Positions 3,919 through 55,403 of a stretch of DNA of 64,000 nt are shown in pieces. The notes beneath the pieces were generated by a model. The model worked only from the letters and a program-made list of their open reading frames with translations. It did no database searches and had not been told where the DNA came from. Each line of letters begins with the position of its first letter. Position 1 is the stretch's first letter. A program made the position numbers and the translations under genes. The stretch is taken from NCBI RefSeq assembly GCF_003790525.1, contig NZ_CP033635.1; one strand, written 5' to 3'. The DNA is from Escherichia coli (GTDB lineage Bacteria; Pseudomonadota; Gammaproteobacteria; Enterobacterales; Enterobacteriaceae).

Positions 3919-5626
3919 ACTGCACCGACTCCGTCGACGTAACTTCACCACTGGAAACTACGCCCGCATTCATGGTTTGAGTCACTTGCTGCTTTGCGGC
4001 ATTCACGGCATGCAATTGCCCGCTAACCGTAGGTTTCAGCGGGATATTGGCCTGAATATTGCCGCTGGCGGTAAGCTGAATATTGCCGTCGCCAGTCAAC
4101 GGTAATTCAGGCCATCCCCACTGTTGCAAAATATTCACCGGCACACCGCGTCCATTCAGGCTGATATGGGTCTGACGTTGTGGCGTTTGTGAAACACTGG
4201 CGGTGGCTTCCAGAATGCCTTTTTCAGTAAATGCACTCAGTTCGCTGATATTCACCGTGCTGCTGTTGGCGGTCAGCGCCAGCGATGGGCGACGAACATC
4301 AACACGATTGAATGTCGCGGCGGCGGCATTCAGATTCGCCGAACCACTCCAGACGCCCCATTTATGATCGGTAACCAGCGTCAGGTTGGCACCGTAACCA
4401 TCGAGCGCGGTGAGCTGCCACGGGAAGTCAGGGTCGATATCAATGATCAGATTGCGGCTGGCGCTAAATCTCTTCAGTTGCAGGCTGTTTAACCAACCGG
4501 GTGTCGTTTCCATCCACAACTGTTGCCAGTTTTTTGGCAAGGTATATTCCAGTCCGGCAATTGCCGCATCATCGAGGATCAACATTTTCCCGTCACGCAA
4601 CCAGTTCCCTGACGTTCTGACCATGCCCCCTTCCCAGCGGCTGGTGAACTGGCGCAGTGCTACGCCCTGCGGGGAAAATTCCGCGTTTATAATCGGATCA
4701 AATAAATGCAGCGAGCCATAAATAAACTCGCTGGCGTTCATCGACAGTTTACCTTCCTGTGTCTGCCAGTCATCTTTACTGAAGGTCATGTTGCGCAAGC
4801 TGAGATCGAGGTCGGTCACCGCCCAGTCCGGACCTTGCAAACGAGCGTCGATGACTTCCAGGCGACCAATCTGCAACGACGGGACAGAGCGTAATGGCGC
4901 AAAGAAGTCGGTTAGCGATTTTTCGCTTTGTAGACGGATATCCGCCATGCGCAGGTTTTCCACTTGCCAGCTGCCGTCAGCGTTACGCTGCGCGTTTCCG
5001 GTTAATGTCCCGCGGGCGATGTCGGCACCCAGGTTAGTCAGCGTAACGCGATCGTTATCAATACTGCCTTCAATCAGTACATTGGTGGCAGGAACATCAT
5101 TGAGCGAAAGCGATCCGGCACTAAACTGAATCTGCGCCTTCGTACCCAGCACTTTACCGGCTTCTGGTGACCAAGGAACCACGCCGCCATTTACCCGCTG
5201 CGCGCTCAGTTTCCATTCGCTATTCGGGCTATTAAACGCCATATCACGTAGTTGCAGACGATCGGCTTTGAACGGTAGCGGCGCGGTCTGGTCGGTGAGA
5301 TTCAGCGTCCCGTTTTCCAGCAGGATGGTATCGACATGGCGTGGTTCGGTCAGTTGCCGACTGCTTAGCGCAATGTCGACACTTTTTGCCACCAGGGTCG
5401 CGGGCTGGCCATCACGGCCAAACGTGACGTTCTCCAGCACGATATGAGATGGCGCGGAAAAACGGTGATCCATCGCCCCGAAGGCCAGATGATAGTCGCT
5501 ATTCTCGGAAACCCATGCGCTGATATGTTCTGCTCCCCAGCGAGTTTGCAGCAGAAAATAGAGGCCAGCGATCACCACTAACAGAGCGATGAGAATGTAG
5601 AGAAGCAGCTTCCCAATAAATTTCAT
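3917..5626 (-). CDS. yicH: AsmA-family outer membrane biogenesis protein YicH
   Basis: 569 aa from MKFIGKLLLYILIALLVV; N-terminal TM anchor; position next to xanP as in K-12. Confidence 0.8.
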   Translation of the reverse strand: MKFIGKLLLYILIALLVVIAGLYFLLQTRWGAEHISAWVSENSDYHLAFGAMDHRFSAPSHIVLENVTFGRDGQPATLVAKSVDIALSSRQLTEPRHVDTILLENGTLNLTDQTAPLPFKADRLQLRDMAFNSPNSEWKLSAQRVNGGVVPWSPEAGKVLGTKAQIQFSAGSLSLNDVPATNVLIEGSIDNDRVTLTNLGADIARGTLTGNAQRNADGSWQVENLRMADIRLQSEKSLTDFFAPLRSVPSLQIGRLEVIDARLQGPDWAVTDLDLSLRNMTFSKDDWQTQEGKLSMNASEFIYGSLHLFDPIINAEFSPQGVALRQFTSRWEGGMVRTSGNWLRDGKMLILDDAAIAGLEYTLPKNWQQLWMETTPGWLNSLQLKRFSASRNLIIDIDPDFPWQLTALDGYGANLTLVTDHKWGVWSGSANLNAAAATFNRVDVRRPSLALTANSSTVNISELSAFTEKGILEATASVSQTPQRQTHISLNGRGVPVNILQQWGWPELPLTGDGNIQLTASGNIQANIPLKPTVSGQLHAVNAAKQQVTQTMNAGVVSSGEVTSTESVQ

Positions 5627-20150: not shown

Positions 20151-20181
20151 TCTGTAGAAAAGTAAGATGAGGAGCGAAGGC

Positions 20182-20823
20182 ATGAAACTATATCAGCGCC
20201 AGTTTATTGAATTTGCGCTTAGCAAGCAGGTGTTAAAGTTTGGCGAGTTTACGCTGAAATCCGGGCGCAAAAGCCCCTATTTCTTCAACGCCGGGCTGTT
20301 TAATACCGGGCGCGATCTGGCACTGTTAGGCCGTTTTTACGCTGAAGCATTGGTGGATTCCGGCATTGAGTTCGATCTGCTGTTTGGCCCTGCTTACAAA
20401 GGGATCCCGATTGCCACCACAACTGCCGTGGCGATGGCGGAGCATCATGACCTGGACCTGCCGTACTGCTTTAACCGCAAAGAAGCAAAAGACCACGGTG
20501 AAGGCGGCAATCTGGTTGGTAGCGCGTTACAAGGACGCGTAATGCTGGTGGATGATGTGATCACCGCCGGAACGGCGATTCGCGAGTCGATGGAAATTAT
20601 TCAGGCCAATGGCGCGACGCTTGCTGGCGTATTGATTTCGCTCGATCGTCAGGAACGGGGGCGCGGCGAGATTTCGGCAATTCAGGAAGTTGAGCGTGAT
20701 TACAACTGCAAAGTGATCTCTATCATCACCCTGAAAGACCTGATTGCTTACCTCGAAGAGAAGCCAGAAATGGCGGAACATCTGGCGGCGGTTAAGGCCT
20801 ACCGCGAAGAGTTTGGCGTTTAA
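20182..20823 (+). CDS. pyrE: orotate phosphoribosyltransferase
   Basis: 213 aa from [36 protein letters not shown]. Confidence 0.9.
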
Positions 20824-20830
20824 AGAAACT

Positions 20831-20854
20831 CGCCGGATGAAAAGTCATCCGGCG
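20831..20854. terminator. bidirectional hairpin between convergent pyrE and slmA
   Basis: CGCCGGATGA-aaag-TCATCCGGCG perfect 10-bp stem. Confidence 0.55.
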
Positions 20855-20859
20855 TCATA

Positions 20860-21456
20860 TTACTGCAACTGTGCAGCAATTAGCGGCCAGCGGGCGTCAA
20901 AGTCATCCGTCGGGCGGTATTTAAACTCGCTGCGGACAAAGCGTGACAGCATACCTTCACAGAAGGCCAGGATCTGGCTTGCCAGCAGGGTTTCATCCGT
21001 CGCGTAGCCTTCGCCCTCACGCATTCTCTTTTCACGCAATACCTGACGCAACTGCGCTTCAATACGCTCGAATAGCTGGTTGATGCGCCCTTGCAGGCGA
21101 TCCTGTTCAAACATTAGTGCATGACCAGTGAGGATGCGGGTCAGGCCAGGATTACGCTCACCAAAACCGAGAAGCAGCAACACAATCAGACGCAGGCGCG
21201 CTGTGGTGTCTTTCTCATCTTTCAGAATCAGATTGATGCGAGTAATCAGGCTATCTTCGATAAACTCAATCAGGCTATCGAACATGCGGGTCTTACTGGG
21301 GAAGTGGCGATACAGTGCCGCTTCGGAAACGCCGACAGAGGCGGCCAGTTTTGCCGTCGTGATACGTTGGCTTCCATCGCTGGATTCCAGCATCAGCGCC
21401 AGAGACTGAAGTATTTCCTCGCGACGGTTCCTTTTCGCAGTTTGTTTTTCTGCCAT
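20860..21456 (-). CDS. slmA: nucleoid occlusion factor SlmA (TetR family)
   Basis: 198 aa from [24 protein letters not shown]. Confidence 0.85.
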
Positions 21457-25645: not shown

Positions 25646-27410
<1,765 letters not shown>

Positions 27411-27724
27411 AGTAAATAGCTGACTTATGGATGTGCTGGGGATTCTATGTATTTAGCTGTGGCTTTACCATTACTTTTCCCGTTTTTGACTTAAATAGCA
27501 ATTTACCCGCCAATTCTTGCTGAACATCTATACTTTTTTTGTATTTTTATGCGATTCATTGATTTCTGCAGTACGTGCAGGAAGGAATCGCAGAGCAACA
27601 GTAAAAGAATATGGTTGCTAATGATTTTATTTGATTGATTTCTTTATTGAAAATCAACAATGTGCTTAAAAATCATTCGGGTCGGATTGCCGCGAAAGAA
27701 GTGATACACTAGCGCGTCAATATC

Positions 27725-27773
27725 AGTGCGGTATCAGTATTCAGGTAGCTGTTGAGCCTGGGGCGGTAGCGTG
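27725..27773 (+). promoter_or_regulatory. JUMPstart element with ops (RfaH recruitment) site in the waaQ leader
   Basis: CAGTGCGGTATCAGTATTCAGGTAGCTGTTGAGCCTGGGGCGGTAGCGTG; ops core GGCGGTAGCGTG at 27762-27773. Confidence 0.75.
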
Positions 27774-27822
27774 CTTTTTCTGCTTCACCTTAATCGGATA
27801 ATCTCAACAAAAAGAGTTACTT

Positions 27823-28881
27823 GTGGATAAGCCATTTCGAAGAATTTTGCTCATTAAGATGCGTTTTCATGGGGATATGTTATTAACTACTCCCGTCATT
27901 AGTTCGCTGAAAAAAAATTACCCTGACGCAAAAATCGATGTGCTGCTTTATCAGGACACCATCCCGATCCTGTCTGAAAATCCAGAGATTAACGCGCTCT
28001 ACGGCATAAAAAATAAAAAAGCAAAAGCCTCAGAAAAAATTGCCAACTTTTTCCATCTCATCAAGATATTACGTGCCAATAAGTATGACCTTATCGTTAA
28101 TCTTACCGATCAATGGATGGTTGCTATACTGGTTCGCTTATTAAATGCCCGTGTGAAAATTTCCCAGGATTATCATCATCGGCAGTCTGCTTTTTGGCGT
28201 AATAGTTTCACTCATTTGGTGCCGTTGCAGGGTGGAAATGTGGTGGAAAGTAACTTATCCGTGCTGACGCCATTGGGACTTGAATCGTTGGTGAAGCAGA
28301 CAACCATGAGTTACCCGCCTGCAAGCTGGAAACGTATGCGTCGCGAACTTGATCACGCTGGTGTTGGACAAAATTATGTGGTTATCCAACCTACGGCGCG
28401 GCAAATCTTCAAATGCTGGGACAACGCCAAGTTTTCCGCTGTGATTGATGCCTTACATGCTCGTGGTTATGAAGTCGTTCTGACGTCCGGCCCAGATAAA
28501 GACGATCTGGCCTGCGTCAATGAAATTGCGCAGGGATGCCAGACGCCACCAGTAACGGCGCTGGCCGGAAAGGTGACCTTCCCGGAACTTGGTGCGTTAA
28601 TCGATCATGCGCAGCTGTTTATTGGCGTTGATTCCGCACCGGCGCATATTGCCGCTGCAGTTAATACGCCGCTGATATCGCTGTTTGGTGCGACAGACCA
28701 TATTTTCTGGCGTCCCTGGTCAAATAACATGATTCAATTCTGGGCGGGAGATTACCGGGAAATGCCAACGCGCGATCAGCGTGACCGAAATGAGATGTAT
28801 CTTTCGGTTATTCCGGCGGCAGATGTCATTGCAGCTGTCGATAAATTACTTCCCTCCTCCACGACAGGTACGTCGTTATGA
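27823..28881 (+). CDS. waaQ: LPS heptosyltransferase III (GT9)
   Basis: GT9 heptosyltransferase fold; first gene after JUMPstart; start codon uncertain (GTG 27823, internal TTG, or ATG 27859). Confidence 0.8.
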   Translation: MDKPFRRILLIKMRFHGDMLLTTPVISSLKKNYPDAKIDVLLYQDTIPILSENPEINALYGIKNKKAKASEKIANFFHLIKILRANKYDLIVNLTDQWMVAILVRLLNARVKISQDYHHRQSAFWRNSFTHLVPLQGGNVVESNLSVLTPLGLESLVKQTTMSYPPASWKRMRRELDHAGVGQNYVVIQPTARQIFKCWDNAKFSAVIDALHARGYEVVLTSGPDKDDLACVNEIAQGCQTPPVTALAGKVTFPELGALIDHAQLFIGVDSAPAHIAAAVNTPLISLFGATDHIFWRPWSNNMIQFWAGDYREMPTRDQRDRNEMYLSVIPAADVIAAVDKLLPSSTTGTSL

Positions 28882-30002
28882 TCGTTGCTTTTTGTTTATA
28901 TAAATATTTTCCCTTTGGCGGTTTGCAGCGCGATTTTATGCGTATTGCTCAGACAGTTGCCGCCCGAGGTCATCATGTTCGGGTTTATACCCAGTCGTGG
29001 GAAGGCGAATGCCCTGATGTATTTGAACTGATCAAAGTGCCGGTTAATTCGCATACCAATCACGGGCGCAATGCGGAATATTTTGCCTGGGTGCAAAAAC
29101 ATTTACGTGAACACCCCGTCGATAGAGTCGTTGGATTTAATAAAATGCCGGGGCTGGACGTTTATTATGCCGCTGATGTTTGTTATGCCGAGAAAGTAGC
29201 GCAGGAGAAAGGCTTTTTCTATCGCCTGACGTCACGTTATCGCCATTATGCCGCCTTTGAGCGGGCAACCTTCGAACAGGGCAAGCCGACACAGCTGCTG
29301 ATGCTGACAGATAAGCAAATCGCCGATTTCCAGAAACATTATCAGACTGAAGCGGAACGTTTTCATATTCTGCCACCGGGGATTTATCCTGATCGTAAAT
29401 ATAGCCAGCAACCAGCGAATAGCCGTGAAATCTTCCGTAAGAAGAATGGAATAACCGAACAACAATATTTATTGTTGCAGGTCGGTTCAGACTTCACGCG
29501 TAAAGGTGTCGATCGTTCCATTGAAGCACTTGCTTCGTTACCGGATTCGCTGCGCCACAACACATTACTATATGTTGTTGGGCAGGATAAACCGCGAAAA
29601 TTTGAGGCGCTGGCAGAAAAACGCGGCGTGCGCAGTAATGTTCACTTCTTCTCGGGGCGCAACGATGTCTCGGAATTAATGGCGGCGGCGGATTTATTAC
29701 TTCATCCTGCCTACCAGGAAGCGGCGGGAATTGTGTTGCTGGAAGCGATAACTGCAGGATTACCGGTACTAACAACAGCCGTTTGTGGCTATGCGCATTA
29801 TATTGTCGACGCCAATTGCGGCGAGGCTATTGCTGAGCCATTCCGCCAGGAAACATTGAATGAGATTTTACGCAAAGCGTTAACGCAATCTTCATTGCGC
29901 CAGGCCTGGGCGGAAAATGCGCGACATTATGCTGATACACAAGATTTATACAGTCTGCCAGAGAAAGCGGCGGACATCATAACGGGTGGTCTGGATGGTT
30001 GA
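28878..30002 (+). CDS. waaG: LPS glucosyltransferase I (GT4)
   Basis: 374 aa [25 protein letters not shown]; 4-bp overlap with waaQ. Confidence 0.9.
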
Positions 30003-30792
30003 ACTTAAAGAGCCGTTTGCCACGTTATGGCGCGGTAAAGATCCTTTTGAGGAAGTTAAAACCTTGCAGGGTGAGGTATTTCGTGAACTGGAAACTCGCC
30101 GCACTCTGCGCTTTGAAATGGCGGGCAAAAGCTATTTTCTCAAATGGCATCGCGGCACGACCCTGAAAGAGATAATCAAAAATTTACTCTCATTGCGGAT
30201 GCCAGTATTAGGCGCAGACCGCGAATGGAATGCGATTCATCGACTGCGGGATGTCGGCGTTGATACTATGTATGGGGTGGCATTCGGCGAAAAAGGCATT
30301 AATCCGCTGACCAGAACCTCGTTTATTATTACCGAAGATCTGACACCAACCATCAGTCTGGAAGATTACTGTGCTGACTGGGCGACCAACCCACCAGATG
30401 TTCGCGTAAAGCGTATGCTTATTAAGCGTGTCGCGACGATGGTGCGCGATATGCATGCTGCGGGCATTAACCACCGTGACTGTTATATCTGTCATTTCCT
30501 GCTGCACTTGCCTTTTTCCGGTAAGGAAGAGGAGTTAAAAATTTCAGTAATTGACCTGCACCGGGCGCAGCTTCGCACGCGCGTTCCATGTCGTTGGCGC
30601 GATAAAGATCTTATTGGACTTTATTTTTCTTCGATGAATATTGGCCTGACTCAACGGGATATCTGGCGGTTTATGAAAGTGTATTTTGTCGCCCCGCTTA
30701 AAGACATTCTCAAGCAGGAACAAGGGCTGCTGTCGCAAGCAGAAGAAAAAGCCACAAAAATCAGGGAAAGAACGATTCGAAAATCGTTGTAA
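29995..30792 (+). CDS. waaP: LPS core heptose(I) kinase
   Basis: 265 aa from [20 protein letters not shown]; kinase-like fold. Confidence 0.85.
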
Positions 30793-30807
30793 TTTCCGGA
30801 GAGAAAT

Positions 30808-31824
30808 ATGAGTGCCCACTATTTTAATCCACAAGAGATGATCAATAAGACAATCATCTTCGATGAAAGGCCAGAGGCGTCAGTGGCATCATCATTCCAT
30901 GTTGCTTATGGCATTGATCAGAACTTTCTTTTTGGTTGTGGTGTTTCAATCACGTCAGTTTTGTTACATAACAACGACGTGAGTTTTGTCTTCCACGTTT
31001 TTATTGATGATATCCCTGACGCCGATATCCAGCGTTTATCCCAATTGGCGAAAAGCTATCATACCTGTATCCAGATCCATCTGGTAAATTGTGAACGGCT
31101 TAAGGTATTACCGACGACCAAAAATTGGTCTATTGCCATGTATTTCCGTTTTGTAATTGCAGATTACTTTATTGATCAACAAGATAAGATCCTGTACCTG
31201 GATGCTGATATCGCCTGTCAGGGAACCTTAAAACCGCTGATAACAATGGATCTTGCCAATAACGTTGCTGCTGTTGTTACTGAACGCGATGCTAACTGGT
31301 GGTCGTTACGGGCTCAAAGTCTGCAGTGTAATGAACTTGAAAAGGGTTACTTTAATTCAGGTGTCCTGTTAATTAATACACCTGCGTGGGCGCAGGAGTC
31401 CGTTTCTGCTAAAGCGATGTCGATGCTTGCTGATAAAGCCGTCGTTTCCCGTTTAACCTATATGGATCAAGATATACTAAATCTTATCCTGTTAGGGAAA
31501 GTTAAATTCATTGATGCTAAATACAATACGCAATTTAGTTTAAATTATGAATTAAAAAAATCATTTATTTGTCCAATTAATGATGAAGCCGTATTAATTC
31601 ATTATGTCGGCCCGACAAAACCCTGGCATTACTGGGCCGGTTATCCAAGCGCGCAGCCATTTATCAAAGCCAAAGAAGCATCGCCCTGGAAAAATGAACA
31701 GTTAATGCGGCCAATTAACTCAAATTATGCTCGTTATTGCGCCAAGCATAATTTTAAACAAAATAAACCAATTAACGGGATAATGAATTATATTTATTAT
31801 TTTTATTTAAAGATAATAAAATGA
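30808..31824 (+). CDS. waaO: outer-core alpha-glycosyltransferase, GT8 family (R1-type WaaO-like by position)
   Basis: 338 aa; GT8 hallmarks (YLDADI DxD motif, HYVGPTKPW); the specific name is inferred from gene order QGP-O-T-Y-W-V-L. Confidence 0.6.
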   Translation: MSAHYFNPQEMINKTIIFDERPEASVASSFHVAYGIDQNFLFGCGVSITSVLLHNNDVSFVFHVFIDDIPDADIQRLSQLAKSYHTCIQIHLVNCERLKVLPTTKNWSIAMYFRFVIADYFIDQQDKILYLDADIACQGTLKPLITMDLANNVAAVVTERDANWWSLRAQSLQCNELEKGYFNSGVLLINTPAWAQESVSAKAMSMLADKAVVSRLTYMDQDILNLILLGKVKFIDAKYNTQFSLNYELKKSFICPINDEAVLIHYVGPTKPWHYWAGYPSAQPFIKAKEASPWKNEQLMRPINSNYARYCAKHNFKQNKPINGIMNYIYYFYLKIIK

Positions 31825-31840
31825 CATTGAGAAAAGTTAA

Positions 31841-32836
31841 ATGAATGAATTTATAAAAGAACGGTTTTCGTATTTAGCAGATAATAAAAAAGAAAACGTC
31901 CCAGAGCTAAATGTTTCCTACGGTATCGATAAGAATTTTTTGTATGGTGCTGGCGTTTCAATTTCTTCCGTTTTGATTAATAATTCAGATATTAATTTTG
32001 TCTTTCATGTTTTCACTGATTATGTGGATGATGATTATTTAAAGTCATTTAATGAAACAGCAAAACAATTTAATACCTCAATTATTGTATATTTAATTGA
32101 CCCAAAATACTTTGCTGATCTGCCGACGTCACAGTTTTGGTCGTACGCGACATACTTCAGGGTATTGTCCTTTGAATATCTGAGTGAAAGTATTTCCACA
32201 CTGCTGTATCTGGATGCCGATGTCGTTTGTAAAGGAAGTCTGAAACCTCTCACAAAAATTATATTTAAAGATGAGTTTGCTGCGGTTATTCCTGACAATG
32301 ATAGTACTCAGGCGGCATGTGCAAAACGTCTTAACATTCCCGAAATGAATGGACGTTATTTCAATGCAGGCGTTATCTATGTCAATCTTAAAAAATGGCA
32401 TGAAGCAAATTTGACACCGTATTTACTCACGCTTTTACGAGGGGAAACTAAATATGGCTCTCTTAAATATTTAGATCAGGATGCGTTGAATATCGCATTT
32501 AATATGAATAATATCTACCTCGCGAAGGATTTTGATACTATTTATACCCTGAAAAACGAACTTCATGATCGTAGTCATCGAAAGTATCAGCAAACCATTA
32601 CCGATAAAACAGTATTGATTCACTATACAGGGATAACTAAACCATGGCATAGCTGGGCTGGATATCCGTCTGCATCATACTTTAATATCGCGCGTGAACA
32701 ATCTCCCTGGAAGAAATATCCTCTTAAAGAGGCGCGGACTGTTGCAGAAATGCAGAAACAATATAAGCATCTGTTTGCCCATGGTGAGTATATAAAAGGC
32801 ATAACTTCATTAATTAAGTACAAGCTTAAGAAATAA
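31841..32836 (+). CDS. waaT: outer-core alpha-glycosyltransferase, GT8 family (WaaT-like by position)
   Basis: 331 aa; GT8 motifs YLDADVV, HYTGITKPW; AT-rich. Confidence 0.6.
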   Translation: MNEFIKERFSYLADNKKENVPELNVSYGIDKNFLYGAGVSISSVLINNSDINFVFHVFTDYVDDDYLKSFNETAKQFNTSIIVYLIDPKYFADLPTSQFWSYATYFRVLSFEYLSESISTLLYLDADVVCKGSLKPLTKIIFKDEFAAVIPDNDSTQAACAKRLNIPEMNGRYFNAGVIYVNLKKWHEANLTPYLLTLLRGETKYGSLKYLDQDALNIAFNMNNIYLAKDFDTIYTLKNELHDRSHRKYQQTITDKTVLIHYTGITKPWHSWAGYPSASYFNIAREQSPWKKYPLKEARTVAEMQKQYKHLFAHGEYIKGITSLIKYKLKK

Positions 32837-32845
32837 ATTACTCTT

Positions 32846-33538
32846 ATGATTACAAGTATACGTTACCGCGGCTTCTCATTTTATTACAAAAATAATGATA
32901 ATAAATATAAAGAAATCTTTGATGAAATACTGGCCTATAATTTCAAAACAGTAAAAGTATTACGTAATATTGATGATACCAAAGTATCGTTGATTGATAC
33001 GAAATATGGTCGCTATGTTTTTAAAGTCTTTGCTCCGAAAACGAAAAGGAATGAACGTTTTTTAAAATCTTTTGTAAAAGGTGACTACTATCAGAATTTG
33101 ATCGTTGAAACCGATCGTGTCAGAAGTGCAGGTCTTACTTTTCCTAATGATTTTTATTTTCTGGCTGAGCGTAAAATTTTCAATTATGCCAGTGTTTTTA
33201 TCATGCTTATCGAGTATGTCGAGGGCGTAGAGCTCAATGATATGCCGATTATTCCAGAAGATGTTAAAGCAGAAATTAAGGCTTCAATGGAAAAATTGCA
33301 TGCCTTAAATATGCTATCGGGCGACCCACACCGGGGTAACTTTATCGTTAGTAAAGATGGTGTCAGGATAATTGACCTATCCGGTAAAAGCTGTACGGCA
33401 GAGCGTAAAGCTCGTGATCGTCTGGCCATGGAACGTCACCTGGGTATTGCCAACGAAATAAAAGATTATGGCTACTATTCAGTAATCTACAGAACCAAAC
33501 TACGCAAATTTATTAAAAAATTAAAAGGCAAAGCGTAA
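32846..33538 (+). CDS. waaY: LPS core heptose(II) kinase
   Basis: 230 aa kinase-like protein placed between GT8 genes as WaaY is in known core loci. Confidence 0.75.
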   Translation: MITSIRYRGFSFYYKNNDNKYKEIFDEILAYNFKTVKVLRNIDDTKVSLIDTKYGRYVFKVFAPKTKRNERFLKSFVKGDYYQNLIVETDRVRSAGLTFPNDFYFLAERKIFNYASVFIMLIEYVEGVELNDMPIIPEDVKAEIKASMEKLHALNMLSGDPHRGNFIVSKDGVRIIDLSGKSCTAERKARDRLAMERHLGIANEIKDYGYYSVIYRTKLRKFIKKLKGKA

Positions 33539-33563
33539 ACCACACAGTCAAAACGGAACCAAC

Positions 33564-34592
33564 ATGGATTTATTAGCTGAGAGTATTACTGAAGTCGCTG
33601 TCTCTGGGGAAATTGCTAACACCGATCGTGTGTTAAATATCGCTTACGGTATTGACCGCAACTTTTTATTTGGTGCAGCAGTATCTATGCAATCAGTTGT
33701 TATGCATAACCCGGATCTTGCGGTTAAGTTTCATCTCTTTACTGACTACATTGATGAAGACTATCTACAACGTGTTAATGCTTTTACCAGCAAAAATGCT
33801 AACGTTGAAGTAAGAATTTATAAAGTATCCAGTGCCTTTATTGATATCTTCCCCAGCCTGAAACAGTGGTCTTATGCAACATTCTTCCGTTTAGTTGCGT
33901 TCCAGTATCTGAGTGAAACTATTGAAAATCTGTTATATATCGATGCTGATGTCATCTGTAAAGGCTCATTAGCTGGATTGCTTGATATTAATTTTGATGG
34001 CGATAAATTCGCAGCTGTTATTAAAGATGTGCCTTTTATGCAGGAAAAACCAGCGAAGCGTCTGGCTATAGAGGGGCTTCCAGGGAATTATTTCAACGCC
34101 GGTGTAGTATATCTGCAGCTTGAAGCGTGGGCGAAAAATGATTTTATGAATAAAGCCATTGCTATGCTGGCAAGTGACCCGCAGCACACGAAGTATAAAT
34201 GCCTTGATCAGGATATTTTAAATATTCTGTTCTTTGGTCATTGTATTTTTATTAGCGGCGATTATGATTGCTTTTATGGCATTGACTATGAGTTAAAAAA
34301 TAAAAGCGATGAAGATTATAAAAAGACCATTACCGATGATACTAAGCTGATTCATTATGTTGGCGTAACGAAGCCCTGGAACGACTGGACGAATTATCCC
34401 TGCCAGAAGTATTTTAATGAGGCTTATCAGGCTTCTTGCTGGAATGATGTGGCGTTTATTCCAGCCACGAATGAAAAGCAGTATCAAGTGAAATACCAAC
34501 ATGCAAAGAAAAATGGTGATACGTTTAACGCTTTTATTTACTTCATTAAATTCAAATTAAATAAGTATAAAAGAAAACTATTTAGGCAATAA
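33564..34592 (+). CDS. waaW: outer-core alpha-glycosyltransferase, GT8 family (WaaW-like by position)
   Basis: 342 aa; GT8 motifs YIDADVI, HYVGVTKPW. Confidence 0.6.
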   Translation: MDLLAESITEVAVSGEIANTDRVLNIAYGIDRNFLFGAAVSMQSVVMHNPDLAVKFHLFTDYIDEDYLQRVNAFTSKNANVEVRIYKVSSAFIDIFPSLKQWSYATFFRLVAFQYLSETIENLLYIDADVICKGSLAGLLDINFDGDKFAAVIKDVPFMQEKPAKRLAIEGLPGNYFNAGVVYLQLEAWAKNDFMNKAIAMLASDPQHTKYKCLDQDILNILFFGHCIFISGDYDCFYGIDYELKNKSDEDYKKTITDDTKLIHYVGVTKPWNDWTNYPCQKYFNEAYQASCWNDVAFIPATNEKQYQVKYQHAKKNGDTFNAFIYFIKFKLNKYKRKLFRQ

Positions 34593-34673
34593 TAAAAATT
34601 ATGGATGTCTAAGTTACAATAATAATTAAGGATGAGTCCTATCATATTTTATTAGTTCAGGCAAGAGAACACG

Positions 34674-35657
34674 ATGAGCAATGATTACCCTTTAGTATCC
34701 ATAATAATACCGACGTATAATTCATCTGATTACATTACTGAAACTCTAACGAAATTAGAAAAACAAACTTACCCAAATTTTGAAATTGTTATTGTTAATG
34801 ATGGTTCTAAAGATAACACATCAAATGTTTTGAGAGAGTATGGGTTAACCCACTCTCGATTAATTATTCTCAATAAAGAAAATGGCGGTGTTTCGTCTGC
34901 CAGGAATACAGGTATCCGCAAGGCGCAAGGACAGTTTATATGTTTTATGGATGATGATGATGAGATAGATCCTAACTATCTGCTGAAGATGTATTCCAGA
35001 CAACATGAGACGGGAGGGGATGCGATTTATTGTGGGCTTTATGGACATCATATAAAAAATGGTGTTACTTACTCACCTATAAATACAGATTTTAATGAAG
35101 GGTCTTTACTTTTCGATTTTTTTTATAAAAAGGTCAGATTCCATATAGGGTGCTTGTTTATAAGAAAACAACTCCTGGAAGATAATAATCTTTTTTTTGA
35201 TGAAGATTTACGACTAGGAGAAGATCTGGATTTTATCTATCGACTGCTAATTACATGCGATATGTATGCGGTTCCATATTATATGTATAAGCATAACTAT
35301 AGAGAAAATTCCCTAATGAACTCATGTAGAACCATCACTCATTATCGACATGAGTCATTTGCGCACGAAAGAATCTACTCTTCTGTGATGCAGTTATACA
35401 AAGGTAACCGGAAAGAAGAAATTCATACATTATTGAGTAAAAATAGAACTTATCATAAAACTCGTTATTTATGGAATGTTCTACTTAATGGCGATTTTGA
35501 ATTATTAAATCAATTAGTTGAAAGCAATGAAAAAGAATTGAAAGATTGTAATCTTCTTGGCAAGAGAGATAAGAGGCGAGCAAAAATATTAGCATCAAAA
35601 AACTATATTCTCTGGAGGATGGTAAGACTGGTAAATAGAAAAAAGAATAAACGTTAG
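34674..35657 (+). CDS. waaV: outer-core beta-glycosyltransferase, GT2 family (WaaV-like)
   Basis: 327 aa; GT2 motifs SIIIPTYN, VNDGSKDNT, DDDDE; a GT2 gene immediately before waaL is characteristic of the R1 core locus. Confidence 0.6.
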   Translation: MSNDYPLVSIIIPTYNSSDYITETLTKLEKQTYPNFEIVIVNDGSKDNTSNVLREYGLTHSRLIILNKENGGVSSARNTGIRKAQGQFICFMDDDDEIDPNYLLKMYSRQHETGGDAIYCGLYGHHIKNGVTYSPINTDFNEGSLLFDFFYKKVRFHIGCLFIRKQLLEDNNLFFDEDLRLGEDLDFIYRLLITCDMYAVPYYMYKHNYRENSLMNSCRTITHYRHESFAHERIYSSVMQLYKGNRKEEIHTLLSKNRTYHKTRYLWNVLLNGDFELLNQLVESNEKELKDCNLLGKRDKRRAKILASKNYILWRMVRLVNRKKNKR

Positions 35658-35702
35658 GTCTTGCATTAAATAACCCATCCTCGTAGCATAGGTTGAAATT
35701 AT

Positions 35703-36956
35703 ATGTCGTTTTGTTGGAAAGAAATTAACTCTGGTGTCAAGTCTTTAATTCTCATATTATGTATGTTGTCTTTAATGACTTTGTCTTTGTGGGATGATGT
35801 TGCAACAAAGTTTCTTCATGCAGCTGGAATTATATCTACATTATATTTTCTAGCGACAGCAAAAAAAACAATAACTAATAATCCTACTTTGTTAATTTTT
35901 ATCTCATTATGTCTTTTGGGTATCGTTAATATCATCTGGTATTCACATTATAAAGTTTCAGGCTCGGTTTATACCAATGCATATCGTGGCCCAATGGAAA
36001 CTGGAAAAATTGCCTTGTGTAGTGCTTTTATTTTCTTAGTTCTTTTTGCTAAAGATGAGATGAGAACAAAAATAAAATTTGGGAAACTAATTCTGTTCGC
36101 ATCCCTGGCAACGCAGTTACTTTTTTTTGCGCATGCCATGTGGCAACATTTCTATTTAAACGTAGACCGTGTTGCATTATCAGCTTCCCACGCTACAACA
36201 GCAGGCTACATCATCCTTTTCCCTTCTTTACTGGCATCAATTCTCATTTTAAAATGCGACTTTAGACATAAAACAACATTATATACAATTAACTTCATGC
36301 TTAGCTTATGTGCTGTCATAGTAACTGAAACGCGTGCAGCCATATTAGTGTTTCCATTCTTTGCGTTAATATTAATCGTAATGGATAGTTATATTAATAA
36401 GCGAATTAATTATAAGTTATATTGTTTTATTGCGATTGCATTATTAGCAGGTGTGTTTTCTTTTAAAGATACATTGCTTATGAGAATGAATGACTTAAAT
36501 AACGATTTAGTTAATTATTCGCATGATAACACCAGAACTTCAGTCGGTGCCCGTCTGGCAATGTATGAAGTTGGTTTAAAAACATATTCTCCAATAGGAC
36601 AATCACTGGAAAAACGCGCGGAAAAAATACATGAACTAGAAGAGAAAGAGCCTAGATTAAGTGGCGCTTTACCCTTTGTAGATTCTCATTTGCATAACGA
36701 TCTCATAGATACGTTATCAACGCGTGGTATTCCTGGAGTAGTATTAACAATTTTAGCCTTTTCAGCAATATTCATATATGCCTTAAGAACTGCTAAAGAA
36801 CCTTATATTTTAATCTTGCTTTTTTCACTACTGGTAGTAGGCCTAAGTGATGTAATACTCTTTTCTAAACCGGTTCCGACTGCTGTGTTTGTCACCATAA
36901 TATTGCTTTGTGCTTATTTTAAAGCACAATCGGACCAATGTTTATTAGATAAGTAA
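35703..36956 (+). CDS. waaL: O-antigen ligase
   Basis: 417 aa polytopic membrane protein with a large periplasmic loop; last gene of the waaQ operon. Confidence 0.75.
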   Translation: MSFCWKEINSGVKSLILILCMLSLMTLSLWDDVATKFLHAAGIISTLYFLATAKKTITNNPTLLIFISLCLLGIVNIIWYSHYKVSGSVYTNAYRGPMETGKIALCSAFIFLVLFAKDEMRTKIKFGKLILFASLATQLLFFAHAMWQHFYLNVDRVALSASHATTAGYIILFPSLLASILILKCDFRHKTTLYTINFMLSLCAVIVTETRAAILVFPFFALILIVMDSYINKRINYKLYCFIAIALLAGVFSFKDTLLMRMNDLNNDLVNYSHDNTRTSVGARLAMYEVGLKTYSPIGQSLEKRAEKIHELEEKEPRLSGALPFVDSHLHNDLIDTLSTRGIPGVVLTILAFSAIFIYALRTAKEPYILILLFSLLVVGLSDVILFSKPVPTAVFVTIILLCAYFKAQSDQCLLDK

Positions 36957-36970
36957 TGAATATGTGAAAT

Positions 36971-36994
36971 AAAATCAGCAAGGAAGCTGATTTT
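36971..36994. terminator. bidirectional terminator between convergent waaL and waaC
   Basis: AAAATCAGC-aaggaa-GCTGATTTT perfect hairpin with A/T flanks. Confidence 0.6.
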
Positions 36995-37025
36995 ATTTCA
37001 AAATTATCTATTAAAGAGTTGTAAT

Positions 37026-52777: not shown

Positions 52778-53550
52778 GCGTTTTTCTCCCTCGAATGCTC
52801 ATTATGGTCACCAGGCAGGCGGGTAATGCGTGCATGGCGAGCTTGATCTTCATCGAATCGTTTCATGGTGGTGTGAACAAAGCTAAGGTGCGCCATCATT
52901 GCTTTACGCGCCCCGTCAGCATCACCGGCAAAAATGGCGTCAATGACTGCCTGATGTTGTTCGGTCAGCTGTGAAAAAACCGGGGGTACCAGATACATCC
53001 GCTGGCGGCTATGCTTCACGGAGGATTGCAGGACATCGAAGAAACCGCGCATGGTTTGCAGCAGCACGATGTTATGCGAGGCTTCGGCAATCGCCAGATG
53101 AAAACGAACGTCCGCTTGCGAAGCGAGGTCCGGGTCTTCGCTGAGCGTTGCTTCAAAACAAAGCTGAATCTTTTCTTTGTCGCCAGGTGTGGCGCGCATT
53201 GCCGCATGCCACGCGGTGCTGGCTTCAATGGCGTAGCGGGCTTCCAGAATATCGAAACTGTAATCCGGATCATCGGCCATCAGCGTTTTCAGCGGCTGGA
53301 CGATGTTTTGCTCCGACCATGTGTCATGACGCCAGCGAATAAACGTCCCGCCGCCACGTCGACTGAGCAGCACACCTTCGCTTACCAGTTTCGCCAGCGC
53401 CTCGCGCAGTGAATTTCTCGACACGCCGAGTTGCATCGCCAGTTGACGTTCAGCGGGCAACTTCATGCCCGCTTCCAGGTTTTTTTCATCAATCAGCGCC
53501 CGCACACGATCGGCAACCTCGTCTGACAGGCGTCTGGGTAAAACAATCAT
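52774..53550 (-). CDS. lldR: GntR-family L-lactate operon regulator
   Basis: 258 aa from [23 protein letters not shown]-track start 53565 is an upstream extension. Confidence 0.85.
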
Positions 53551-55205
53551 TAAGGAATCATCCACGTTAAGACATAGGCCTGAAGCGTGGTGATCACGCC
53601 CACCATACAGGTGAAGATCAGGCTGTGTTTGACAGTAAAGCGGAACAAATCAGACTCTTTGCCCACCAGGCCTACCGCCGCACAGGCGATAGCGATAGAT
53701 TGCGGGGAGATCATCTTACCGGTGACGCCACCGGTGGTATTGGCGGCAACCAACAACAGGTCAGAAACGCCAATTTGTTGTGCGGCGGTAGCCTGCAAAG
53801 CGGCAAACAAAGCATTAGATGACGTATCCGACCCGGTCAGGAATACCCCAAGCCAGCCGAGGAACGGCGAGAAGAAGGTGAATGCATGACCGGTGTGCGC
53901 CAGTGCCAGCGCCAGTGTTGATGACAAACCGGAATAGTTCGAGATAAAGGCGAATGCCAGCACCATACCGATGGAGTAGATGGGCAGAGCCAGTTCTTTC
54001 AGCGTGCTGCCGAAGGTGCTGATAGCGTCAGATGGTTTCATCTTCAGCCAGACAATCGAGAGCAGGGCAGCAAACAGAATGGCGGTACCGGTGGCAGAGA
54101 ACCAGTCAAACTTAAACACGGCGGCATACGCTGTCGCTTCGCTGACCACTGGCGGCATACGGGCAACCAGTTTATCGAGGTACGGCACCGGAATGTTGAT
54201 CACCCACTCATACAGCGCACCGCCTGAAGCGAACAGGGCTTTAAACGGCGGGATACTCCACAGCGTTACGGTGGCGGTCAGGAACAGGAACGGTGTCCAG
54301 GCGCGCAGCACCTGACCTGCCGTGTAACCTGTGTGAGCCAGCGTCATATCAACCTGTGACGCCCCTAAGTCACCGAAGCGGAATACGCGCACTGGTTGCC
54401 AGCGTTTGAGGAACAGCGTCAGGCAGAGCAGTGATACCAGCGAAGAGATAATGTCTGGCAGTTCCGGCCCAATGAAGTTAGAGCTGAGGTATTGAGCAAT
54501 GGCAAACGAACCACCTGCAACCACGACCGCAGGCCACGTCTCTTTGATACCGCGCCAACCGTCCATAATCGCCATGATCCAGAACAGCACGATAATGGTC
54601 ATAAACGGCAGCTGACGCCCCACCATCTGACCAATCTCAAAGCTGTCGATGCCTGTTACCTGCCCGGCGACCAGAATCGGAATACCCATCGCGCCAAATG
54701 CCACTGGTGCGGTGTTAACAATCAGGCACAGTCCGGCGGCGTAGAGTGGTTTAAAGCCCAGACCGACCAGCAATGCGGCGGTAATTGCTACCGGTGCGCC
54801 AAAGCCTGCGGCTCCTTCAAGGAAAGCGCCGAAACAGAAACCGACAATCAGCATTTGCAGGCGCTGGTCAGGGGTTATCGAAAGAATAGACGAGCGGATG
54901 ATGTCAAACTGCCCGGTTTTCACCGAGATCTTATAGACGAACACCGCTGCAATAATGATCCACGCGATGGGCCACAACCCGTAGAAGAAGCCATAAACCA
55001 CCGAGGCCAGCGCGTTAGCGACCGGCATTTTATAGAACAGCAAAGCCACGGCAAGGGCGATTGCCACCGTCCATGAGGCGGCGACGTATCCTTTCAGTTT
55101 GAGCTTAATCAGCGCAAAGAAGAAAAACAGGATGGGAAGCGATGCTATCAGGCTGGAAAGCCAGATATTCCCGGCGGGATCGTAGTTTTGTTGCCAGAGA
55201 TTCAT
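53550..55205 (-). CDS. lldP: L-lactate permease
   Basis: 551 aa from [22 protein letters not shown]; polytopic membrane protein. Confidence 0.88.
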
Positions 55206-55403
55206 TGCAGGTCTCCTGCAGTCCACACACGCCGTGTAATGAGTCTGTTGCTCATCTCCTTGTCACACGTTGTGTAAAAGTGGCACTGCCAATTGTGTTG
55301 TGTAGGGATAATGACAATGGATAGTTAACTAAATGTTATGCATTAGCAACATTGATGTGAGTTTTAATTGGGAAATTGTGAACCAGAGGTCAGATAAGCG
55401 AAG

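Follow-up and report, generated by a model that had tools for sequence, protein, structure and literature searches.

The divergently aligned genes waaA and waaQ of Escherichia coli are separated by a gap of 412 bp, and the question raised by this locus is which signal within the gap serves the long operon that starts with waaQ. We examined a window of 64 kb (the whole stretch of DNA analysed, 64,000 nucleotides), in which the original prediction had placed a JUMPstart sequence with the ops core in the leader of waaQ. The genes on both sides of the gap were identified as follows.

26133-27410, minus strand: waaA, encoding Kdo transferase and diverging from waaQ; identified by NF004385 with 905 bits (cut-off 590)
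27823-28881, plus strand: waaQ (rfaQ in RefSeq), which opens the operon and encodes heptosyltransferase III; identified by NF007742 with 712.7 bits (cut-off 467)
28878-36956, plus strand: the remaining eight genes of the operon, with short gaps or overlaps throughout

The GTG start codon of waaQ (27823-27825) agrees with the RefSeq annotation of the identical sequence. The genes after waaQ are arranged in the order waaG, waaP, waaO, a GT8 gene, waaY, a galactosyltransferase gene, a GT2 gene and the O-antigen ligase gene, and waaQ and these downstream genes, all on the plus strand, were confirmed as lipopolysaccharide (LPS) core genes, forming a nine-gene core operon at 27823-36956. The names waaG, waaP, waaO, waaY and O-antigen ligase are those of RefSeq or NCBIfam; waaT (GT8), waaW, waaV (GT2) and waaL are names that we assigned, and we take the gene order to be that of the R1 core type. 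Beyond the operon, waaC, waaF and hldD are located on the opposite strand. The outer-core part is 100% identical to that of E. coli SMS-3-5 and others, and the outer-core and ligase genes (31000-37000) contain 32-38% G+C as against 51-54% in the flanks, a low content that is consistent with horizontally exchanged DNA.

The record NZ_CP033850.1, in which the waaA-waaQ intergenic region is 100% identical to that of the window, carries a gene of the reverse transcriptase family (4445-5404 of the extracted locus) between pyrE and slmA, while in the window pyrE (20167-20823) is directly followed by slmA and this gene is absent (about 20823-20860). The same record carries a GT25 gene in place of the GT2 gene of the window, presumably indicating an R4 core there and an R1 core in the window.

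Within the waaA-waaQ gap, the JUMPstart family of Rfam (RF01707) was recognised with a score of 55.2 bits against the curated gathering score of 35 (E=4e-11). The alignment covers the full model (positions 1-38 of 38), and RF01707 is the sole Rfam family that reached its gathering score within the whole window. The JUMPstart element itself was reportedly described by Hobbs and Reeves in 1994. The site is composed of the following elements.

27735-27773, plus strand: JUMPstart element of 39 nt, as matched by RF01707
27762-27773, plus strand: ops element GGCGGTAGCGTG, matched exactly and with no other exact copy in the window; it is on the non-template strand
27772, plus strand: expected RNA polymerase pause at U11, before G12 (27773)

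The ops 12-mer was found without a single mismatch, even though mismatches in its core were what a careful alignment might have disclosed, and it conforms to the 12-nt consensus GGCGGTAGnnTG including both the RfaH-contacting core and the pause dinucleotide T11-G12. The exact 12-mer exists as a single copy on both strands of the window, for which dinucleotide shuffles predict 0.01 copies. Since all nine genes of the operon are on the plus strand, the ops element is on the non-template strand for their rightward transcription, as required, and the operon polarity that had been read from the site holds as well. The element lies downstream of the transcription start inferred at 27717 and upstream of these nine consecutive genes, that is, in the untranslated leader before the first gene of a polysaccharide cluster, the leader status being transferred by homology from the start site of K-12.

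The site had been placed 50-100 bp upstream of waaQ, and this is correct: the Rfam element starts 88 nt and the ops element ends 49 nt before the GTG codon, and position 27725, where the left boundary had been drawn, is 98 nt upstream of it. The right boundary at 27773 is likewise exact, but the left one is not, because the canonical 39-nt element begins at 27735. The sequence of 27725-27773 is CAGTGCGGTATCAGTATTCAGGTAGCTGTTGAGCCTGGGGCGGTAGCGTG, of which the extra 10 nt at 27725-27734 (CAGTGCGGTA) are due to a second CAGT start that is specific to the waaQ leader. The distance from JUMPstart to waaA is 350 bp. Another Rfam match within the gap, to MIR5284 at 27520-27622 (E=0.71; 21 bits, with the threshold at 93), was rejected as noise.

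Strings resembling ops occur elsewhere in the window. A second full match to the consensus GGCGGTAGnnTG, GGCGGTAGCCTG, is located at 53784-53795 on the plus strand, bringing the matches within the window to two, where 0.09 are expected. The gene lldP (53550-55226, minus strand) encloses this second match, which is on the antisense strand, could act only on an antisense transcript, and is probably a coincidence of the coding sequence. The window contains 7 copies of the 8-mer GGCGGTAG, where 1.5 are expected; the copies at 1064, 16861, 22688, 53672 and 63781 are without TG at positions 11-12, and all copies but that of waaQ are inside long open reading frames. The excess of the 8-mer is likely due to codon or dipeptide bias (Gly-Gly-Ser, Ala-Val), which dinucleotide shuffles do not model.

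Of the 5,426 complete E. coli genomes, 5,424 gave a match to a query of 55 nt covering the element. Identity was 100% in 4,423 records and 95-99% in another 1,003; K-12 differs by one base. With this query, the median number of JUMPstart-like places per complete E. coli genome is two. The waaA-waaQ intergenic region (27411-27822) was also found in 5,424 of the 5,426 genomes, as two alleles: 4,433 records are at least 99% identical to the window, and 935, K-12 included, are about 80% identical. The K-12 waaQ (rfaQ) JUMPstart is in the same position between waaA and waaQ, and its 39-nt element is identical, both copies scoring 55.2 bits. The differences from K-12 are that the window carries the R1-type allele of the intergenic region (about 80% identity overall), that its T-run after ops is one T shorter, and that its downstream operon encodes the R1 core instead of the K-12 core. 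When the two alleles were aligned, a block at 27667-27779 containing a promoter-like motif, JUMPstart and ops was found to be conserved. The alleles form a mosaic, with conservation at both ends and in an island at 27533-27561, and with divergence at equal length in 27500-27666; WaaQ of one allele type shares only about 72% identity with that of the other.

For a wider comparison, metagenome contigs were searched with a pattern consisting of ops with positions 9-10 left free and the HGDM motif of WaaQ. A total of 22 distinct waaQ leaders were obtained, including that of the window, with WaaQ proteins 67-99% identical to that of the window. Since the pattern prescribed ten of the twelve ops bases, these are invariant among the 22 leaders by construction; the two free positions were CG in 22 of 22. 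The 5' half of JUMPstart shows a mean column identity of 0.90 as against 0.73 for the untranslated region after ops, and JUMPstart, the extended -10, AAGAG and GTG are kept in all 22 leaders, GTG being invariant.

The same 39-nt family with the same ops is known from the leaders of rfb (O-antigen) and wca/wza (colanic acid). K-12 carries three JUMPstarts recognised by Rfam, before waaQ, rfbB and wza, and those of rfbB and wza score 60.0 and 57.3 bits, respectively. A scan of genome contigs that allowed 13-17 nt from GGTAGC to ops, the gap in waaQ being 12 nt, gave the wza-linked JUMPstarts of Citrobacter and Raoultella (48-51 bits) together with chance matches in GC-rich genomes. In the rfb and wza copies this spacing is 12-13 nt, the second pair of the stem is U-A instead of the A-U of the waaQ copy, and the leaders have neither a U-run after ops nor a 5' arm of the waaQ type. 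On the plasmid p21AR0133D of E. coli (NZ_JBSAOW010000005.1, 52 kb), an O-antigen cluster (wcaL-wcaM-galF-rfbBDA-flippase) carries a JUMPstart-like match before rfbB (4001-4030 of the extracted locus).

The overlap of the site with a known small RNA had been overlooked in the original prediction, whose reading of the site otherwise stands. In the RefSeq annotation of MG1655 (NC_000913.3), the 73-nt sRNA gene rirA (b4760) is located at 3808166-3808238 (minus strand), just upstream of waaQ, and we could align it end to end onto 27717-27788 of the window with 5 substitutions and 1 indel (one T fewer in the T-run). According to reviews by the discoverers of RirA (PMC8745692, PMC5736990, PMC6358824), RirA and the waaQ mRNA have one common start site, RirA includes JUMPstart and ops, and RirA was reported to bind RfaH and to damp RfaH activity. 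By this full-length homology the leader can be mapped as follows, with positions counted from the start of the transcript.

27702-27710, plus strand: putative extended -10, TGaTACACT, read from the sequence, 7 nt upstream of the inferred start
27717 (+1): transcription start, transferred from K-12 by homology
27717-27788, plus strand: equivalent of RirA (b4760), by homology to K-12 only; its 5' end is the start of the waaQ mRNA
27735-27773 (+19 to +57): JUMPstart, relative to the homology-inferred start
27762-27773 (+46 to +57): ops, likewise
27772 (+56): expected pause at U11, likewise
27812-27816, plus strand: weak Shine-Dalgarno-like AAGAG, 6 nt before GTG, with a mean column identity of 0.99 among the 22 leaders
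27823 (+107): GTG start codon, relative to the same start

Transcription of waaQ thus probably starts near 27717 from an extended -10 promoter. The extended -10 shows a mean column identity of 0.93 among the 22 waaQ leaders, 6 of its 9 columns being invariant. A scan for consensus promoters and terminators called neither this likely promoter nor any terminator; the extended -10 was missed owing to a poor -35 region (TCGGAT, 27682-27687). This hexamer, 17 nt upstream of the -10, agrees with the -35 consensus at 2 of 6 positions, yet its mean column identity among the 22 leaders is 0.88, and it may be the site of another factor. In strain E2 (NZ_CP104509.1), the IS4-like element ISVsa5 is inserted between waaA and waaQ at the equivalent of 27666/27667, which is the exact upstream edge of the conserved promoter and leader block and precedes the inferred start by about 50 bp; this insertion is a natural experiment on the length of upstream sequence required by the waaQ promoter. 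The reviews describe the RfaH-controlled operons as being without a ribosome-binding site, from which the conserved, albeit weak, AAGAG of the waaQ leader is a slight departure.

Taken together, we consider the site to be the JUMPstart/ops of the waaQ leader and the loading site for the NusG paralogue RfaH, with a probability of about 0.93. The sequence, position, strand, family membership and conservation were obtained here, and the steps of pausing, binding and anti-termination are taken from publications on E. coli K-12 and CFT073. RNA polymerase transcribing ops (27762-27773) would pause at U11 (27772). RfaH would then bind the paused polymerase, its C-terminal domain would refold, and RfaH would travel with the polymerase, excluding NusG and suppressing pausing, Rho-dependent termination and silencing by H-NS. 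It would also aid the recruitment of ribosomes at the weak start of waaQ (GTG after AAGAG). As an outcome, the AT-rich operon of about 9 kb, from waaQ to waaL, would be expressed to its end.

In the published work on ops, the non-template strand forms a small hairpin that is stabilised by C3:G8 and read by RfaH, with G4, G5, A7 and G8 being essential for RfaH and T11-G12 for the pause, and RfaH once loaded stays with the polymerase, suppressing pausing and termination (PMC5995543). The element of the window carries all of these bases on the non-template strand of a 5' leader, and no difference from the known ops (operon polarity suppressor) was detected. A DNA fold calculated for the 12-mer (-0.9 kcal/mol) was marginal and differed in register from the published C3:G8 loop, and was not used. 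Dependence of the waaQ operon on RfaH has been reported for E. coli K-12 (PMC6358824), and ChIP-seq of RfaH in CFT073 identified four loci including rfa, all of which are coated by H-NS-StpA (PMC9765446). The G+C content of 32-38% of the outer-core genes also argues for the loading of RfaH, since RfaH guards DNA of this type against silencing. Nothing in the sequence contradicts the JUMPstart/ops reading of the waaQ leader. The presence of rfaH, which is unlinked to waa and outside the window, in 5,425 of 5,426 complete E. coli genomes indicates that this genome very likely carries it as well.

Two other explanations deny the site a role in elongation. One is that an ops-like string arose by chance or from codon usage and has no regulatory role, as the excess of the 8-mer and the second consensus match inside lldP demonstrate that such strings arise without function. 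The copy at 27762 is, however, the only one outside an open reading frame and the sole exact 12-mer, it is embedded in a full-length JUMPstart match, and its position is kept across the 5,424 genomes and the 22 divergent leaders; chance occurrence was rejected on the grounds of uniqueness, JUMPstart match and conservation, and hardly any weight is left to it. The other takes the conserved block for a promoter of waaQ or waaA, or for a site at which a transcription factor acts on either gene, instead of an elongation signal. The divergent intergenic location would suit such a role, and the block at 27667-27779 does include the promoter-like TGaTACACT. JUMPstart is located at +19 to +57, however, downstream of the start that is given by homology to the 5' end of K-12 rirA and waaQ, the same element is present in the rfbB and wza leaders with unrelated promoters, and 350 bp separate it from waaA. 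On these grounds a role as promoter or operator is unlikely, and we give this alternative only a very small chance, slightly above that of a chance match.

A third explanation adds to the loading of RfaH and does not replace it: JUMPstart/ops would act also or mainly as RNA, in an attenuator whose hairpin and U-run release RirA unless RfaH is loaded, with RirA titrating RfaH. The RNA structures concerned are the following.

27742-27760, plus strand: short JUMPstart stem-loop, CAGGT (27742-27746) pairing with GCCTG (27756-27760), as in the Rfam consensus structure
27725-27775, plus strand: extended imperfect RNA hairpin, predicted and specific to the waaQ leader, in which the ops RNA has the 5' arm (27725-27738) as its partner
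27775-27779, plus strand: T-run, terminator-like, directly after the hairpin

The short stem has 5 standard pairs, with all cells paired in the 22 waaQ leaders, and its second pair appears as A-U, G-U or G-C among them; tests of covariation, for the 22 leaders and for the waaQ, rfb and wza copies, were not significant, the variation being too sparse. The 5' arm of the long hairpin is the stretch particular to waaQ that the original prediction had counted with the site. The long hairpin was obtained by RNAalifold on the 22 leaders and by folding of single sequences, so that the structure was derived from the very sequences used to assess it; 98% of its cells are paired, as compared with 30-58% when the partner is slid. 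Its topology was recovered in all 22 leaders folded singly, at least 8 of the 12 ops bases are paired upstream in 20 of 22, and at least 5 T are found within 8 nt after GCGTGC in 20 of 22. The RirA region of the window, like K-12 RirA, carries JUMPstart and ops and is predicted to form the same hairpin followed by TTTTT; among its 5 substitutions and 1-nt deletion relative to K-12, the replacement of T by G at 27731 introduces a bulge into the predicted stem. The JUMPstarts of rfbB and wza in K-12 have no U-run after ops, which also speaks for a device peculiar to waaQ.

The folding energies, however, are not clearly beyond those of shuffled sequences, the z-score being -0.66 for the RirA equivalent of the window and -1.25 on average over the 22 leaders, as against -2.29 for K-12 RirA; the 39-nt element (z +0.32) and the 131-nt leader (z -0.19) fold no better than shuffles. 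The variation consists almost entirely of one-sided transitions, with a single double compensatory change, the terminator scan found none here, the annotated 3' end of RirA is about 6 nt past the expected point of release, and ops is read as non-template DNA in the published work cited above. None of the papers searched links RirA to Term-seq data. A role of the RNA, additional or dominant, is therefore possible but doubtful. The more specific model, in which the ops RNA of waaQ leaders, unlike that of rfb and wza, is part of an RfaH-sensitive attenuator with RirA as the terminated product, is put forward tentatively and with somewhat less confidence still.

The site between waaA and waaQ is real, was correctly read, and is an ordinary textbook regulatory signal. 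The JUMPstart sequence and ops core claimed for the waaQ leader are borne out by the Rfam model, with a score well above threshold, and by the exact 12-mer; JUMPstart, ops, the RfaH dependence of waaQ and the sRNA RirA have all been published previously, and nothing in these is new. As the loading site for RfaH, the element explains how an AT-rich, partly horizontally acquired LPS-core operon of 9 kb escapes from the polarity caused by Rho and H-NS, and for annotation it settles in which direction the operon runs and where its 5' boundary is. The sole potentially new part is the hairpin with its U-run: if real, it would account for the origin of RirA in a simple manner and imply a negative feedback loop that can be tested, by which the LPS-core operon itself would hold its anti-terminator in check.
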